Shown here: in pieces, positions 5,050 through 60,802 of the stretch
Position numbering within the stretch: position 1 is the stretch's first letter
How the letters are laid out: every line of letters begins with the position of its first letter
Origin: an uncultured bacterium
Lineage (GTDB): Bacteria; Patescibacteriota; Minisyncoccia; UBA6257; 2-01-FULL-56-20
Direction of reading: 5' to 3'
Length of the DNA stretch: 64,000 bases
Assembly (NCBI GenBank): GCA_963807165.1
Contig: CAWDZM010000001.1
Span: 198,306 to 262,305 of the forward strand
Position numbers and translations under genes: made by a program
The notes under the pieces: model-generated
What the model saw: the letters and a program-made list of their open reading frames with translations, nothing else
Database searches by the model: none
Told to the model about the DNA's origin: nothing

Positions 5050-5120
5050 GCTGCGGGACTTGGATTCGAACCAAGATTAACGGATTCAGAGTCCGCGTGC
5101 CTACCATTAGCAGATCCCGC
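5050..5120 (-). tRNA. tRNA-Gln (anticodon CTG)
   Basis: Cloverleaf folded by hand: 7-bp acceptor stem, T-loop TTCGAAT, anticodon loop CTCTGAA. CCA is not encoded. Confidence 0.8.
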
Positions 5121-5123
5121 AAT

Positions 5124-5780
5124 TCAATATTCGCGAAAGGCAATGAGTTTTCTCAATTTCTCGACTTCCGCTTTTCTTCTTATCCGTATTGCATTATTAC
5201 GTACTTCGGGATGAAATTCAAGCCGCCGCAAAATGTCTTCGACGATATTCAATAATGATTGATTCTTATTTGAAAACGAGAAATTATAGGTGCAAGTTGG
5301 TAGGTGAATATTGAGGGAACCCTCTGCCTCGAATAATCCGCGAAGAAATCTTATGGAAAATGATTCGTTCTCGTTTATCCAATCCGGAAGAGTATACGGC
5401 ACATCTTTTCTATTACCGCTCGCTATCCCCAGCCGCTGGGAAATATATTTTTGGTATAAGCTGATCCGAAGCGCATTTACATCTTTTAGTTTGGTAACCG
5501 TAGGTTCGTTGCCAAATAAAATATGAGTTAATCTTGTGTACCGGCGGATAAATTCTGGGTTATTGCTATTGCCCACGATTATTAACCGCTCCGTTCGCGG
5601 GCATGCTTCAATATTTCCATCTCCAAGCACCACCCCGATATATTCAGCAAGATCACCGTTACGGGGAAGATCCGCATAGCGAACGCGGTGGTCGTCGCGC
5701 CATTTTTTAAAATTATCAATTTTTCTCGCCTTCATAGTGCGAGATATTTTTTCTGCGCGAGAAAATTTGTGATTTGGCAT
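5124..5780 (-). CDS. LAGLIDADG homing endonuclease, double-motif. Its stop codon lies 3 nt before the 5' end of tRNA-Gln.
   Basis: Motifs YIGVVLGDGNI and FLRGLFEAEGSL. Confidence 0.8.
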   Translation of the reverse strand: MPNHKFSRAEKISRTMKARKIDNFKKWRDDHRVRYADLPRNGDLAEYIGVVLGDGNIEACPRTERLIIVGNSNNPEFIRRYTRLTHILFGNEPTVTKLKDVNALRISLYQKYISQRLGIASGNRKDVPYTLPDWINENESFSIRFLRGLFEAEGSLNIHLPTCTYNFSFSNKNQSLLNIVEDILRRLEFHPEVRNNAIRIRRKAEVEKLRKLIAFREY

Positions 5781-5874
5781 ATAATCTTGTTCGGATTATA
5801 TACCTCCCGCATTAAATTTTTATTAAATCTCTATCTCTATTATTAAACTAGCACAGCCAAGCGAGCGCCTGCGT

Positions 5875-13200: not shown

Positions 13201-13235
13201 TGAAGTTTTAATGCGGTTTTTGTTATGGTTATTCC

Positions 13236-14021
13236 ATGGCAAAACGTTGGACTCACAGCGAGGAGCTATCTTACGGTGATCAATTGCGGAAGTTATATCT
13301 ATTGGAAAATAGAACCATTTCTGATATCGGTTTGATATTAAATATATCGCCGAGTGCGGTATACCATCGGCTGATAAGACTAAAAATTCCGGTTGTGCGA
13401 GAGAAAAAAGCTCATTATTTAAATCGTCGATCGGATATTATTATCCCAACGCACCATTCCAACACTCTCGCAGAAATTTTTGGCATCATGTTGGGCGATG
13501 GGAAATTATCTCATTACCAGACTATGGTCACGCTGGGGAATAAGGAGGAAGTATACGCCAAGTATGTCGCCGAACTGCTCATTAAAATTTTTGGGGTTCA
13601 TCCAAAAATAATTACCGACCCTCATAAAGGTTATCGAACGGTTTATTTAGGATCAACGGAAATAGCAGCGTGGTTGGTAAGCGAAGGATTGGTATATAAT
13701 AAAGTTGCGTCACAAGTTGATGTTCCTCTGTGGATACTGGATAAAGAGCAATATATGAAACGATTCGTTCGTGGATTTTTTGATACCGACGAATCGATCT
13801 ATAAATTGAAATATGGCGCACAATTATCTTTTACCAATTATTCCGTCCCGTTGCTTATATCTTTACAATGGCTACTAAGACGGTTAGGATATAGAGTGTC
13901 CGAAATAAGCGGACATCGATTTTATCTTACCAAACAAGGCGAGATAGAAAGATTTTTTAAAGAGATCGGCCCGTGCAACCCAAAACACGTCAAGCGATTT
14001 AATCTCTTTATTAATTCTTAA
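13236..14021 (+). CDS. LAGLIDADG homing endonuclease, double-motif, with an N-terminal HTH. Its stop codon lies 11 nt before tRNA-Tyr.
   Basis: Motifs IFGIMLGDGKL and FVRGFFDTDESI. Paralogous to 5124..5780. Confidence 0.8.
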   Translation: MAKRWTHSEELSYGDQLRKLYLLENRTISDIGLILNISPSAVYHRLIRLKIPVVREKKAHYLNRRSDIIIPTHHSNTLAEIFGIMLGDGKLSHYQTMVTLGNKEEVYAKYVAELLIKIFGVHPKIITDPHKGYRTVYLGSTEIAAWLVSEGLVYNKVASQVDVPLWILDKEQYMKRFVRGFFDTDESIYKLKYGAQLSFTNYSVPLLISLQWLLRRLGYRVSEISGHRFYLTKQGEIERFFKEIGPCNPKHVKRFNLFINS

Positions 14022-14032
14022 TATAAGCTCAT

Positions 14033-14116
14033 GCGTCGGTGGCAGAGCGGTCAAATGCTCGAGACTGTAAATCTCGCGCCCTATGGGCTACGCAGGTTCG
14101 AATCCTGCCCGGCGCA
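14033..14116 (+). tRNA. tRNA-Tyr (anticodon GTA), long variable arm
   Basis: Cloverleaf folded by hand. Anticodon loop CTGTAAA, T-loop TTCGAAT. CCA is not encoded. Confidence 0.85.
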
Positions 14117-14135
14117 CACATAGAAAAGAAAAAAC

Positions 14136-39416: not shown

Positions 39417-40930
<1,514 letters not shown>

Positions 40931-41004
40931 TTAGCACGAAAACGGGGGCGAGGCTAGGGGGGCAACAATTAGTGTTTCAAAATAGCCGCCTGTATAATGT
41001 AGCT

Positions 41005-41610
41005 ATGGGAAACACAGAACCGACAAAATCAGTCGAATCAGAAAAACACAATTTGGCCTTTGTCGATGCACAAAACATGCATTTTGGCACAACCAAGTGT
41101 TATGAATGCATCGCTAAATTAAGGTTGGAAAACCCAGATCTTAAAATCGAAAATGTTAAACTTTCCGATTGTTCTTGCGGAAAAGCATGGGAAGTTAACC
41201 TCGCTAAGTTCAGAATTTATTTGAAAGAAAATTATAACGTTTCTGAAGCCTACTATTTTCTTGGCAATCTCCAAGATAAAAATGAGGAGCTTTATAAAGA
41301 TATACAAAAAGCCGGATTCATTTTAGTTTTTAAAGAACACACGAGCCTAGCCAAGTCGAAAAAGAAAGGAAATGTTGACACTGATTTAGTTTTCGAAGTT
41401 ATGAAAAATATGGTTGATAACTCAGAGTTCAACCAAGTTGTTATTGTTTCTGGAGATGGCGACTACAAAAAATTAGTTAATTACCTGATTTCTAAAGATA
41501 AATTTAGAAAGATTCTCTTCCCAAACAAGAAATTTGCATCGTCTCTATACAAAGAATTCGGCGGAGAAAGGTTCGACTATCTTGAAAATATACGGACTTA
41601 TATAGCCTAA
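41005..41610 (+). CDS. NYN-domain (LabA-like) putative ribonuclease with an inserted 4-Cys segment. It sits inside the AT-rich island.
   Basis: Motifs LAFVDAQN... and VVIVSGDGDY. Start moved to the internal Met because the upstream part is the GC-rich gltX leader. Confidence 0.6.
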   Translation: MGNTEPTKSVESEKHNLAFVDAQNMHFGTTKCYECIAKLRLENPDLKIENVKLSDCSCGKAWEVNLAKFRIYLKENYNVSEAYYFLGNLQDKNEELYKDIQKAGFILVFKEHTSLAKSKKKGNVDTDLVFEVMKNMVDNSEFNQVVIVSGDGDYKKLVNYLISKDKFRKILFPNKKFASSLYKEFGGERFDYLENIRTYIA

Positions 41611-41816
41611 AAATGAAAAAGGCCCCTAGGGCACTTACACCTTTCGGGTCCTCTCTCGTATTGATACTTGTATACTACACCCAGTTTATCCAAAAGTCAA
41701 CACGGGGGGTAAATAACCCACATAGATTCTACACTTTCGCACCTCTCGAAGCGTCCTCAATGTTCCAAATTCCCCCATTTTGGCACGAAATGGTGCAAGA
41801 ACTTGAGTGAAAATTA

Positions 41817-42785
41817 CTATAGTCTTCCAGAAATTTCAAATCGATTGAGAATATATTGACGGTTGTCAAAAATTTCTACATGCCCATAATCAGCGTTAGC
41901 CTGGATACGAAAATTATTGAGTTCGAGAGCTCTTTTTACAACATACATCCCAATACCTAGCCCATCTATGCCTTTGGCATGCTTACCCCTAAATCGCAAG
42001 TTGAAAATCTTAGTAAGCTCCTCTGGCTCAATTCTTAAGCTTATCATGCCTATTGTTAATTTAAATTCCCCTCCTTCGATTTCAAAATAAAATCGTATAT
42101 CTGAATTAGGCTTTACATACTTAAACGCATTATCAAGAAAATTATAAAAAGCTGTGTTAATTGTTTTATAATCTAATTTTATTTTATTTGCCTCCGCCAT
42201 CGAGTCAGCGAACCAAAAACTCGGTTTAACCCACGTTTTATTTGATTGATCTTCGAATGCATGAAGTACTTTAATTATAATATCGCGAATATTATGTGGT
42301 CGGATATCAAGCTGAATCTCCTCGCCCATATTGATAATTTCAAAGCTTGCCATATGAGCATCGATTTCTACTATTCTCTGTTGTAGATTAATCAAAATAT
42401 CCGCGACCCCTTTGGTATCAGCTTTTATGTCAGCGATCACTATTTCCCTTTGTTCTTGAAAATCCTTATTCGCGAACTTGCGATAATCTACGATCCCTTC
42501 TATTTTCTGTTTTAATTGTCCTTGTAATTTTATTAGACTGTGAGAATGTTCTTTTATTTGATCAATAAAACCATCCTCGATTGAAAAAATGATCGGGCTA
42601 CTAACCTCGACCACTTTCCGTAATATTTTTGATCGCTTTACAAGTTCAAGATCGTCGGTGATAAACTCAATCACCCCGTCGCCTATCTGAAATTCTCTAA
42701 TGGCATAACCAGATTCATTAAAATTATCTGGTATATTCGTGGAGACAACTTCTCCGTCTGAAGTTTTTCTCCGATAGAAAGTCAT
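41817..42785 (-). CDS. Cytoplasmic histidine-kinase-like ATPase (GHKL HATPase_c) with an uncharacterised N-terminal domain. AT-rich island.
   Basis: N-box LDNAFKYV, G1-box GIDGLGIGM, and a possible H-box EIDAHMASF. No TM segments. Confidence 0.55.
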   Translation of the reverse strand: MTFYRRKTSDGEVVSTNIPDNFNESGYAIREFQIGDGVIEFITDDLELVKRSKILRKVVEVSSPIIFSIEDGFIDQIKEHSHSLIKLQGQLKQKIEGIVDYRKFANKDFQEQREIVIADIKADTKGVADILINLQQRIVEIDAHMASFEIINMGEEIQLDIRPHNIRDIIIKVLHAFEDQSNKTWVKPSFWFADSMAEANKIKLDYKTINTAFYNFLDNAFKYVKPNSDIRFYFEIEGGEFKLTIGMISLRIEPEELTKIFNLRFRGKHAKGIDGLGIGMYVVKRALELNNFRIQANADYGHVEIFDNRQYILNRFEISGRL

Positions 42786-43240
42786 TTAATTTTACTCAGC
42801 TCCGATTCAATCATAGAAATAAATTCTGACGTTTCGGAATTTTTTGACATTTGATTATCAGCCACTCGCATATCCACGCTCAATTTAAATCGCCCATATG
42901 CAGAATATAGAATCACTCTTTTCTTATCGCGATACGCATTCTTAATTGCCCGAATTACACTTATACCCTGCTCTTTTTCTGATAATTTATCACCGACTCC
43001 TTTATAGTCGACGAAAATAATATCTGCTCTTTTTATATTTTCGTCTTGGATATTAATAATGTCATTTATTTTCCTTACTGCCCACCCCGCTTTTTGTAAA
43101 TTTTCAACAACCGGGCACTCGGAATCATCAATGAAAAGAATGTTCGCTGAAATTTTATCCAATTTCTTTTTGCGCCGAAACGGCCACCAAAAATTGGGCT
43201 TGAAATCTATGTCTACGTTGACTACGTTAAAATCGCCCAT
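42782..43240 (-). CDS. Stand-alone receiver (REC)-like domain protein. Its stop overlaps the kinase start (ATGA). AT-rich island.
   Basis: ILFIDD (acidic pair), IIFVDY (phospho-acceptor Asp), ILYSA (Thr/Ser). ~30-aa N-terminal extension. Confidence 0.5.
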   Translation of the reverse strand: MGDFNVVNVDIDFKPNFWWPFRRKKKLDKISANILFIDDSECPVVENLQKAGWAVRKINDIINIQDENIKRADIIFVDYKGVGDKLSEKEQGISVIRAIKNAYRDKKRVILYSAYGRFKLSVDMRVADNQMSKNSETSEFISMIESELSKIK

Positions 43241-56858: not shown

Positions 56859-56909
56859 TGGAAATGATTATAACAGATTGTTTTGGAAGAACAAGGGCTG
56901 CCTCTGTTG

Positions 56910-56990
56910 TGCGCGGGAGAGGATTCGAACCTCCACGCCTTTCGGCACACGCACCTCAAGCGTGCTCGGCTACCATTACGACACCCGCGC
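56910..56990 (-). tRNA. tRNA-Leu (anticodon GAG), long variable arm
   Basis: Cloverleaf folded by hand. Anticodon loop TTGAGGT. CCA is not encoded. Confidence 0.8.
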
Positions 56991-56991
56991 G

Positions 56992-57675
56992 TTATATTGT
57001 CAGCTTCTTATTTATTACCGCCAACGCATCTTCGATCTTTTTGCGCTTTCGGGATAAACAAACCACCTCGGGATTATAATACATCTTTGGTAATAATTTC
57101 AATGACTCAGCCTTCGCATATTTTATTTCATACATGGGAGCCTTCCCCGTCTTTGTAATATGACCCTTTATCGCTAATCTCCGAAGTATTCCCTCCCGTA
57201 TCCATACGATATGTTTTTCGCTGGCAGACATAAAAACCGTGTAAAACATATAGCTTGATCGCCAGCGGGGGTCCCAATATGAGTAGAACGTTCCGTCACC
57301 GTCGAAATGGCCACGAAGGAAATCGAAGAAATATTCGGGTGGAATATCTATACTCCCGATTATTTTCGATTTTTGCGGCATAATGCCGATGCTATTAAGA
57401 AAATTGCAAAATGCGACATCGCCAACCTGAAGATTAAAGTATTTTTTCTCTCTATTCGATCCGCTGCTTTTCATTCCAATTTTGTTCGTAATACCCAAGC
57501 ACCCCATAAAATTTTTCATCTGCTCTTCATCTTTTGAAGTAAAATTTATCATTTTGCGATTGGAGTATATGCATCCATCCGTCACTAAAAGCCCGATTGC
57601 GTAGGCAAATTCGGGCGACCATCGTATTGCGATCTTATGTTGCGGATGCATACCCGACCCTACCACACCGCACAT
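56992..57675 (-). CDS. LAGLIDADG homing endonuclease, double-motif. Its stop codon lies 1 nt before the 5' end of tRNA-Leu.
   Basis: Motifs AIGLLVTDGCI and FLRGHFDGDGTF. Confidence 0.75.
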   Translation of the reverse strand: MCGVVGSGMHPQHKIAIRWSPEFAYAIGLLVTDGCIYSNRKMINFTSKDEEQMKNFMGCLGITNKIGMKSSGSNREKKYFNLQVGDVAFCNFLNSIGIMPQKSKIIGSIDIPPEYFFDFLRGHFDGDGTFYSYWDPRWRSSYMFYTVFMSASEKHIVWIREGILRRLAIKGHITKTGKAPMYEIKYAKAESLKLLPKMYYNPEVVCLSRKRKKIEDALAVINKKLTI

Positions 57676-57753
57676 TAAAAATTTCTTAAAAGATCTTTGA
57701 TAATAAAAAAACCTCGCGAATATGCGCGCGAGGCATGCCCAAACATCGCCATA

Positions 57754-58143
57754 TCACTCTTCCGCCTTGGGCGGAAACTGCGCCTTCGCGAGCCAGGGCA
57801 GATACGCCGTCTGGAGATGATGTATCGCCGACGAAGTCATCCCTTCGAGCGAGCGCAGAAACGCGTTATCGGCACGTTCCTGCCGCGTCCAGTCTCCATG
57901 CTTTTTTTCTTTGACCTTTCGGCAGAACCGCAGAGAAAGCTGGCTCGTTAACACGACCACTTTCTTGTAGCTTCCGTCCGTCAGTTCGAAATGCTCTTTC
58001 ATGGCAGACAAATCGGTCCCGGCGTTGCACTCCCGCAGCGTGGCGGCACAATGGCGTTGCAACCCTTCGAACTCCGCCAATGCTTCAGCGCATATTTCCC
58101 GGAATTCGTTCTGATTCCATAGACGTAGATTTTCAATAATCAT
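57754..58143 (-). CDS. Hypothetical protein
   Basis: 129 aa, no recognised motif. Confidence 0.3.
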   Translation of the reverse strand: MIIENLRLWNQNEFREICAEALAEFEGLQRHCAATLRECNAGTDLSAMKEHFELTDGSYKKVVVLTSQLSLRFCRKVKEKKHGDWTRQERADNAFLRSLEGMTSSAIHHLQTAYLPWLAKAQFPPKAEE

Positions 58144-58240: not shown

Positions 58241-58567
58241 TTAGATGGAGACCTTCAGCTTCTGGCGAATCTTGGCGCCAGAGATGCCGCGGACGAAATA
58301 CAATTTTGAGCGATGGACTTTCTTTGGTGAAGAAACGACGTCGATCTTGACGATCGAAGGCGAGTGGATCGGATACACTTTTTCCACGCCGACGCCTGCG
58401 AGTGTGGTGCGGACGGTGAACGTCGCGCCCGGCTCAGAGCCATGCTTGCGCGCGATCACTAAACCGGCGAATGGGGTTTTACCCTCATACACCTTTACCT
58501 TCGCGCCCGGCTTTATTTTTTTGAGAATTTCCTCTGAGACCATGGTTGTTATTATGTTATGCCACAA
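58241..58567 (-). CDS. rplS: 50S ribosomal protein L19
   Basis: Full-length L19 homology. Confidence 0.85.
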   Translation of the reverse strand: MWHNIITTMVSEEILKKIKPGAKVKVYEGKTPFAGLVIARKHGSEPGATFTVRTTLAGVGVEKVYPIHSPSIVKIDVVSSPKKVHRSKLYFVRGISGAKIRQKLKVSI

Positions 58568-58940: not shown

Positions 58941-59079
58941 AGTAGTATTCTATCATATTTCTGTAAAGAGCTTTTTAGTTGTCCCAATTACCTCCCTCGC
59001 TTTCGCCTGCGATCGATTCGCTGGCCAAAGAGAAGAAAGTTCGACATATATAGAACCGAAGTTTTATATATTTAGTTTA

Positions 59080-60626
<1,547 letters not shown>

Positions 60627-60802
60627 GATAAAAAGATATCGCCCAAAGTCTCAAAAACTTTGAACGTTGATCCTAATGTTATTGTTGCAACATTTGATTA
60701 CTTCTTAACGTTGCCAAAAAGAATAAATTGGGACAACTAAAAAACTCTCTCTTTTTTCCTTACCATTAAATTGTGAAGGGACAGCTCGATACAACGAGGT
60801 CT

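Follow-up and report, generated by a model that had tools for sequence, protein, structure and literature searches.

A free-standing LAGLIDADG gene family at the 5' side of tRNA-Leu(GAG) in Patescibacteria: tRNA linkage, embedded promoter candidates and evidence bearing on mobility

On the minus strand of a stretch of 64,000 nucleotides (nt) from an uncultured patescibacterium (contig CAWDZM010000001.1, positions 198,306 to 262,305; hereafter the window), a LAGLIDADG open reading frame (ORF) ends almost in contact with the gene for tRNA-Leu(GAG). This arrangement raises the question of what kind of gene this is, whether it moves alone or together with the tRNA, and how the tRNA is transcribed downstream of it. 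The TAA stop codon of the ORF occupies 56992-56994 and a single base (56991) precedes position 1 of the tRNA at 56990, just as a first-pass annotation of the window had read it. The tRNA gene itself (56909..56990, minus; ARAGORN) is of type II, does not encode CCA, and is matched by the Rfam tRNA model RF00005 with 47.2 bits (56910..56990). The explanation that we favour, with moderate confidence, is that the ORF is an intron-less and intein-less monomeric double-LAGLIDADG homing endonuclease gene (HEG), a member of a large family in Patescibacteria that is specialised on the 5' side of tRNA-Leu(GAG) and supplying the promoter of this tRNA.

The LAGLIDADG gene and its occupied and empty sites

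In its longest form the ORF (56992..57675, minus) encodes 227 amino acids (aa). Alignment with homologues indicates that the true start is probably the ATG at 57651, the family-consensus start, giving a gene of 219 aa (56992..57651, minus). Pfam LAGLIDADG_3 matches the 227-aa ORF in two stretches (E=1.6e-8), and two LAGLIDADG motifs can be recognised: YAIGLLVTDGC (57571..57603, minus), with the putative catalytic aspartate D33 at 57577-57579, and FDFLRGHFDGDGT (57289..57327, minus), with the putative catalytic aspartate D127 at 57295-57297 (both in the numbering of the 227-aa form). The D-G end of the first motif and the DGDG of the second are the positions that bind the catalytic metal in the LAGLIDADG family. 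A homologue search with this protein recovered 2704 database clusters, the best 120 of which show 60-84% identity and a length of about 217 aa. Taxon labels of homologues and related loci assign the source, a metagenome-assembled genome, to Patescibacteria (Paceibacterota/Minisyncoccia). Among 45 aligned homologues 47 columns are invariant; these include D33 and D127, the D and G of motif 1, and the F, L, R, G and DGDG of motif 2. Both aspartates, and the D and G of motif 1, are also at least 98% conserved in the set of 120.

The AlphaFold (AF2) model of the protein (predicted local distance difference test, pLDDT, 84.5; predicted template modelling score, pTM, 0.86) consists of two pseudo-symmetric alpha-beta-beta-alpha-beta-beta-alpha halves, as in the fold of monomeric double-motif LAGLIDADG endonucleases with its beta-sheet DNA saddle. 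Its best Foldseek match in the PDB is I-Tsp061I (2DCH, E=3.5e-10), an archaeal intron endonuclease, and further structural matches comprise intein endonuclease domains, I-DmoI, I-SceI and I-AniI; WhiA (3HYI) and the bI3 maturase are also among the structural neighbours. Site-specific cleavage of a long DNA target (14-40 bp), which characterises LAGLIDADG homing endonucleases, is predicted for the Leu-family protein; the tRNA relic and the isoacceptor specificity described below are the only, and indirect, pointers to such a target. The Pfam scan of the protein found no helix-turn-helix (HTH) domain and no match to the LAGLIDADG_WhiA model. Rfam scans around the ORF, at both gathering and E-value thresholds, detected no intron and returned just the tRNA and a 16.5-bit chance match to msiK, and the idea that the ORF is surrounded by a group I intron or another structured RNA was rejected. 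Also, the ORF lies between two genes with its own start and stop codons, and is encoded by neither an intron nor an intein. The gene is free-standing and of the double-motif LAGLIDADG type.

Linkage to the tRNA is a property of the whole family. Metagenome contigs were scanned protein-first, and the scan recovered 80 loci, of which 74 extend at least 95 nt past the ORF and could be evaluated. tRNA-Leu(GAG) lies immediately 3' of the ORF, on the same strand, in all 74, and in 71 the stop codon is positioned between 17 nt before and 36 nt inside the tRNA. The four homologues examined in assemblies (67-70% identical) conform as well, the tRNA beginning 1-7 nt past the stop in each. Because 74 of 74 homologues found through their protein precede the same tRNA, the adjacency is not a product of chance. 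Of the 80 metagenome loci, 55 have the gene for ribosomal protein L19 (rplS) within 400 nt upstream.

The ancestral state of the site was assessed in species-representative genomes, which were scanned with a tRNA-Leu(GAG) pattern and gave 120 loci (designated by L numbers). Among the species representatives the gene is intact in 16 cases, interrupted by in-frame stops in 2 and reduced to a stub in 2, and 40 rplS-tRNA sites are empty. At these 40 HEG-less Patescibacteria loci rplS is directly upstream of tRNA-Leu(GAG), at a distance of 0-160 nt and often 0-8 nt, while occupied loci have the order rplS, about 100 nt, endonuclease gene, tRNA. It follows that the tRNA is native downstream of rplS, and that the insert consists of the endonuclease gene and its leader only; the HEG is extra DNA between the two. 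In the window, rplS (58241..58567, minus), the ancestral upstream neighbour of the tRNA, is followed by a 129-aa hypothetical gene without Pfam match (57754..58143, minus) and then by the endonuclease gene.

The closest relatives by L19 identity, L087 (94%) and L007 (91%), lack the endonuclease gene, and L005 (88%), L006 and L001 are occupied. L087 has the order response regulator (RR)-L19-tRNA-Leu-CYTH-SecD and L007 the order RR-L19-hypothetical gene-tRNA-Leu, from which it follows that the 129-aa hypothetical gene is independent of the element. The first-pass annotation had described a module of endonuclease and tRNA inserted beside secD, and had proposed to compare this neighbourhood among relatives as a check on its mobility. 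In that comparison the gene is present in some related genomes and missing from others at a single position that is fixed and conserved, a polymorphism consistent with mobility of the endonuclease gene. The tRNA does not belong to the inserted unit, as it stands after rplS in the HEG-less loci and before CYTH-SecD in L087. DNA alignment with the empty site of L007 was tried as a means to place the exact insertion boundaries and was abandoned, since the flanks are too diverged and the tRNA alone aligns.

In-frame stop codons interrupt the endonuclease gene in L055 and L081, and in L077 and L037 the last 35-45 codons alone are left between the upstream gene and the tRNA, with the promoter described below included. 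The GC content of the Leu-linked endonuclease gene is 40%, versus about 52% in neighbouring genes; for the three LAGLIDADG genes of the window taken together (the other two are treated in the last section) the values are 39-41% GC and 37-46% GC at third codon positions (GC3), with 49-55% and 53-68%, respectively, in the neighbours. In L003 the gene occurs in a context other than rplS. Host distance was expressed as pairwise identity of L19, one short and noisy marker, and on this scale mean HEG identity is 60% where L19 is 30-45% identical and 66% where L19 is 75-85% identical (rho 0.26, 2926 pairs). Hosts whose L19 proteins are 85-95% identical may have HEGs with identity down to 55%, and hosts with 38% L19 identity may have HEGs that are 72% identical. 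HEG divergence appears almost uncoupled from host divergence, and on these comparisons the endonuclease gene seems to be mobile. A conserved, non-mobile gene with a function other than that of an endonuclease had been named in the first-pass annotation as the outcome that would speak against mobility; what was found is a gene that is widespread and conserved, yet patchy among close relatives, decaying in some, and with its catalytic residues kept.

Sequences at the two ends of the gene

The 3' end of the ORF contains a sigma-70-like promoter, TTGAAA-18 nt-TATAAT (57073..57102, minus), that matches the consensus at 11 of 12 positions. In the window it overlaps the codons for SLKLLPKMYYN, and its -10 box ends 82 nt upstream of the tRNA. 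Matches of at least 10/12 occur within the last 110 nt of the ORF in 15 of 18 genome loci and in 64 of 72 metagenome loci, and every other 110-nt bin of the ORF has such a match in 0-1 loci. The -10 box tends to end in one of two ranges upstream of the tRNA, about 16-33 nt or about 72-82 nt away. Codon choice follows the hexamers: the two Tyr codons located there are TAT in 22 of 22 cases versus 77% elsewhere in the ORFs, and the Leu codon is TTG in 9 of 11 versus 18% elsewhere. Also, the C-terminal stubs of L077 and L037 retain exactly the promoter-bearing part of the gene. Where empty sites have an intergenic spacer, a similar promoter is often found 9-24 nt before the tRNA. From these consensus matches we infer that the element supplies the promoter of tRNA-Leu, and that RNase P removes the resulting leader. 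A second candidate, the sequence TTGACA 7-8 nt before the tRNA in several loci, encodes a C-terminal L-T-K and was rejected as a -35 box, because with its spacing transcripts would begin within the tRNA.

On the other side of the gene, the leader (57652..57700, minus; TTTTAAGAAATTTTTAATGTGCGGTGTGGTAGGGTCGGGT) is preceded by an intrinsic-terminator-like hairpin and T-run (57701..57734, minus; TTTTTTTATTA tail), with an 8-bp stem that includes 6 GC pairs. This hairpin would terminate the 129-aa gene and would shield both the endonuclease gene and the tRNA from transcription of the rplS operon.

The leaders of the family contain what appears to be a relic of the tRNA. In 58 of 89 occupied loci the motif TTGG(T/C)A(T/G)ACGCTAYNNNCTTGAGG is present within 20-70 nt before the start codon, and it is collinear with tRNA-Leu positions ~16-38, a segment that starts in the D loop, includes the anticodon and reaches the 3' edge of the anticodon loop. 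The motif was detected in none of the 40 upstream regions of empty sites and in none of the 89 ORF bodies. A fuller relic, comprising positions 1-38 and beginning with GCGCGGGT at tRNA position 1, occurs in L188. In 46 of 56 relic loci a -10-like box follows TTGG(T/C)A at a spacing of 18 nt (TTGG(T/C)A-18-TAnnnT), which is the geometry of a promoter. The part of the relic derived from the anticodon stem differs from the pattern of the host's own tRNA, indicating that the relic travels with the element or is constrained within it. The relic stops at the 3' boundary of the anticodon loop, which would place the target of the endonuclease within the tRNA gene. The relic also suggests that a tRNA-Leu gene was broken near position 38 by the original insertion and would then have been repaired by a duplicated 5' part and a new promoter.

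A clear relic was also sought in the window's own leader, and was discarded there, as the local alignment is not significant (z ~0). The leaders of all three unrelated LAGLIDADG genes of the window (57652-57700, 5781-5850 and 13201-13235) share TTTAATG..GCGG..GGTA(G/T) just upstream of the start, which could represent a lineage-specific expression signal or degenerate relics of tRNA 5' ends. The leader at 57652-57700 may itself combine a degenerate tRNA 5' relic with expression signals of the endonuclease gene. A different duplication was observed in L011, within the last 200 nt before tRNA-Leu(GAG): the endonuclease stop is followed by GCGCGCGGGTGGGCGA..., a duplicated 5' end of tRNA-Leu, then by about 110 nt able to pair in the manner of an acceptor stem, and then by the real tRNA. 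This duplicate may be a second tRNA-derived fragment or a pseudo-tRNA.

Proposed mechanism, alternatives and known systems

In the mechanism that we propose, the endonuclease would cut HEG-less tRNA-Leu(GAG) loci at a site within the tRNA gene, and recombinational repair from an occupied allele would copy the HEG in. The insertion would sever an essential tRNA from its own promoter or from co-transcription with rplS, and for this reason the 3' coding end of the element would hold a substitute promoter, and the element would at first also have brought a substitute for the 5' segment of the tRNA. The pre-tRNA would start inside the ORF and have its leader trimmed by RNase P at 56990, and the displaced old 5' fragment of the tRNA, with the adjoining -10 box, would act as the promoter of the HEG itself.

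A number of points weigh against this explanation. Cleavage, target, transcription starts and homing are predictions, and the promoters are candidates from consensus matches. The pseudogene calls are single stop codons in metagenome-assembled genomes, the shortness of L19 makes the axis of host distance noisy, and for the Leu copy of the window a tRNA relic is doubtful. With a target wholly inside the tRNA, occupied alleles would not be obviously immune, and the tRNAs of occupied and empty loci can differ by a single base (L022 versus L008). A search for a substitution that is fixed in occupied-site tRNAs and could confer immunity found none, the nearest occupied/empty pair being 1 nt apart, in the variable loop. 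The one hint is a bias at the anticodon-stem pair 30:40, which is G-C in 53 of 82 (65%) occupied tRNAs versus 7 of 37 empty ones, counts that are uncorrected for phylogeny; the pair is C-G in 81% of empty-site tRNAs, and the relic carries this 'empty' type. The bias may be an immunity polymorphism or a phylogenetic artefact. Finally, the protein is unusually conserved for a parasite, with about 60% identity at host L19 identities of 35-45%, which a host function could also explain.

One form that such a function could take is that of a domesticated LAGLIDADG host protein serving the adjacent tRNA, for example as a WhiA-like, sequence-specific regulator of the tRNA promoter within the ORF's own 3' end or as a maturase-like pre-tRNA chaperone, and linked to it through co-expression. 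This we regard as improbable. It would be in keeping with the 100% linkage to the tRNA, with a promoter common to ORF and tRNA, with 47 invariant columns in 45 sequences, and with about 60% identity across distant hosts and thousands of copies; the tRNA-like DNA motif upstream of the start codon could be read as an operator, and WhiA and the bI3 maturase stand among the structural neighbours. However, the closest relatives do not have the gene, and neither do most Patescibacteria whose tRNAs are near-identical; it has given rise to pseudogenes and stubs, its base composition is foreign, its divergence is nearly uncoupled from that of the host, and it has no extra HTH domain. WhiA and many maturases have lost the catalytic aspartates, which in the present family are invariant. 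WhiA is a domesticated LAGLIDADG transcription factor, devoid of catalytic residues, provided with a C-terminal HTH and universal as a single copy in its lineages. The likeness extends to the LAGLIDADG fold (the 3HYI match), and some sources name the homologues 'WhiA'. Unlike WhiA, the Leu family has invariant acidic residues, no HTH domain and a patchy distribution; a degenerate active site, a C-terminal HTH and universal vertical inheritance, which together would identify a protein of the WhiA type, are not what was found.

Comparably unlikely is an ancient, immobile insertion, gained once early in Patescibacteria, inherited vertically, lost repeatedly, and kept where its 3' end is the only promoter of the tRNA. 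The rplS-HEG-tRNA synteny in 55 of 80 loci would fit such a history, as would the lack of an evident immunity difference between occupied and empty tRNAs, and the promoter-only stubs show selection on the promoter and not on the protein. Against it, intact ORFs with invariant catalytic residues are maintained throughout the family, close hosts have divergent HEGs and distant hosts similar ones, GC3 has not been ameliorated to that of the host, and contexts other than rplS, such as that of L003, exist. As to a cassette of endonuclease gene and tRNA moving as one and dropped between secD and the hypothetical gene, the physical adjacency, the shared promoter and the duplicated tRNA 5' fragment by the HEG in L011 and in many leaders (so that some tRNA sequence does travel with the element) could be cited for it, but it is contradicted by the synteny of the empty sites, HEG-less relatives having tRNA-Leu(GAG) in an equivalent position behind rplS and, in the case of L087, ahead of SecD; the tRNA bodies follow host lineages and no second copy of tRNA-Leu(GAG) was seen in the loci, which makes it very improbable indeed.

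A homing endonuclease gene that would provide for its tRNA can be compared with other elements that use stable-RNA genes. Phages and genomic islands that target tRNA genes restore the target with a duplicated tRNA segment. The Leu-linked insert resembles these integrative elements in that the inserted DNA is flanked by a partial tRNA copy at one end and by an intact tRNA at the other end, and differs from them in that there is no integrase, the duplicated part is 5' and not 3', and the insert is a single endonuclease gene of 0.75 kb. As the 5' part rather than the 3' part is duplicated, a promoter must also be supplied.

Introns of rRNA genes in the Candidate Phyla Radiation (CPR)/Patescibacteria encode LAGLIDADG homing endonucleases (Tsurumaki et al. 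2024, PMC11270868). These enzymes, like I-Tsp061I and I-DmoI, share family, fold, the two motifs and the conserved acidic residues with the Leu-linked protein, and the rRNA-intron enzymes also share its host phylum and have targets that are likewise highly conserved stable-RNA genes. In contrast to them, the Leu-linked gene is located outside the RNA gene, at its 5' end, and would be rendered harmless by a promoter instead of splicing. Group I introns are known from the anticodon loops of Patescibacteria tRNA genes; HNH endonuclease genes occur in those of tRNA-Asn, most tRNA introns have no endonuclease gene, and LAGLIDADG genes in tRNA introns have been reported just for cyanobacterial tRNA-Arg (PMC13011429). 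Phylum and class of target are the same as here, and the relic ends where tRNA introns insert; unlike in these introns, tRNA-Leu(GAG) is uninterrupted and no ribozyme is present.

A functional analogy is with SegB of phage T4, a free-standing GIY-YIG homing endonuclease encoded in a tRNA gene cluster, whose recognition site is reported to include the conserved T-psi-C stem-loop and whose gene is missing from related genomes (Brok-Volchanskaya et al. 2008, PMC2330249). Both genes are free-standing among tRNA genes, and recognition of tRNA sequence by the Leu family would be analogous in function. SegB is a GIY-YIG enzyme of a phage and recognises a motif common to many tRNAs, whereas the Leu family is of LAGLIDADG type, resides in a cellular chromosome and is associated with one isoacceptor. 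Neither an embedded tRNA promoter nor a tRNA-half relic is reported for SegB in the abstract of that publication (PMC2330249).

In the literature searched on CPR/Patescibacteria no description was found of tRNA-flanking, isoacceptor-specific LAGLIDADG families, of a tRNA promoter embedded in an ORF or of a tRNA-half relic; the papers found on Patescibacteria place LAGLIDADG genes in rRNA introns only and HNH genes in tRNA-Asn introns. The enzyme itself is an ordinary member of the LAGLIDADG family; its genomic lifestyle resembles that of free-standing phage endonucleases such as SegB and recalls the integrative elements named above. HEGs are not known to survive in essential genes other than inside self-splicing introns or inteins. 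The Leu-linked case suggests a third way, insertion at the 5' edge of a tRNA gene by an element that brings a promoter and, apparently, once brought the 5' half of the tRNA. If this holds, it would account for a large number of Patescibacteria proteins listed as 'hypothetical' or 'WhiA-like', and the expression of some essential tRNAs in minimal genomes would depend on parasite-derived promoters. The promoter-only stubs would then illustrate a concrete route from selfish element to indispensable regulatory sequence, and the family would constitute a natural library of compact monomeric meganucleases with targets predictable from the neighbouring tRNA.

Other tRNA-linked families and the surrounding window

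The Leu-linked gene had been listed as the third instance of its kind, and the two others were recovered in our analysis. tRNA-Gln(CTG) (5050..5121, minus) has a LAGLIDADG_3 ORF upstream (5124..5780, minus) with a gap of 2 nt, and tRNA-Tyr(GTA) (14033..14117, plus) has one (13236..14021, plus) with a gap of 11 nt, such that all three tRNAs of the window are preceded by a LAGLIDADG_3 ORF on the same strand. Mutual identity of the three proteins is just 20-25%, and the three families have matches in at least 2704, 728 and 233 database clusters. The Gln family precedes tRNA-Gln(CTG) in 5 of 5 loci and the Tyr family tRNA-Tyr(GTA) in 5 of 5, several of these ORFs ending inside their tRNA. Leaders of the Gln family contain relics of tRNA-Gln positions 1-21, and the match of the Gln protein to Pfam LAGLIDADG_WhiA is below threshold. 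Embedded promoter candidates of the Gln and Tyr families, conserved in position at ~71 nt and 125-142 nt upstream, match the consensus at only 9-10/12 and were not accepted, the loci being too few.

The parallel families would act at tRNA-Gln(CTG) and tRNA-Tyr(GTA) in the same manner as proposed for tRNA-Leu(GAG). More tentatively, and with less than even confidence, they could all belong to an undescribed class of 'gene-healing' elements, in which each family, without any intron, cuts inside one essential tRNA gene and inserts an ORF with a promoter in its last codons together with a replacement for the 5' part of the tRNA, the displaced fragment becoming the promoter of the element itself; several LAGLIDADG families and some HNH genes would be included. 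If this were true, a noticeable share of the tRNA genes in the tiny genomes of Patescibacteria (3 of 3 in the window) would be transcribed from promoters supplied by parasites.

Other ORFs next to tRNA genes were noted among the genome loci. In L130 an ORF of HNH type (1387-1902, minus; Pfam HNH_3/HNH) is immediately 5' of tRNA-Leu(TAA) (1293-1375), and in L094 an ORF of HNH type, with a weak match, overlaps tRNA-His(GTG) by 15 nt. ORFs upstream of tRNA-His in several loci were considered as endonucleases and set aside as a housekeeping gene, adenosyltransferase-like on reading of the sequence. ORFs of about 225 aa in L074 and L107 (tRNA-Gly GCC) and in L027 (tRNA-Ile TAT) end 1 nt before or 10 nt inside the tRNA and combine an N-terminal HTH domain with a single LYWAEG/LYWGEG motif; without Pfam confirmation, they may represent another endonuclease family. 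A distant LAGLIDADG relative in L060 (995-1750, minus; E=5e-29 to the Leu-family profile) has the reverse arrangement, being situated 11 nt 3' of tRNA-Leu(TAA) and followed by a terminator and no tRNA.

Elsewhere in the window, a complete 16S rRNA gene (59074-60631, minus; 1352 bits) is located upstream of the response-regulator and rplS genes and is free of insertions, in contrast to many CPR 16S genes. An island of 2.4 kb (40800-43240) has 34-38% GC in a window of 50% GC, and contains an ORF read as NYN/LabA-like (40825-41610, plus) and, on the minus strand, ORFs that resemble a histidine kinase (322 aa) and a receiver (152 aa). The island is probably of foreign origin.

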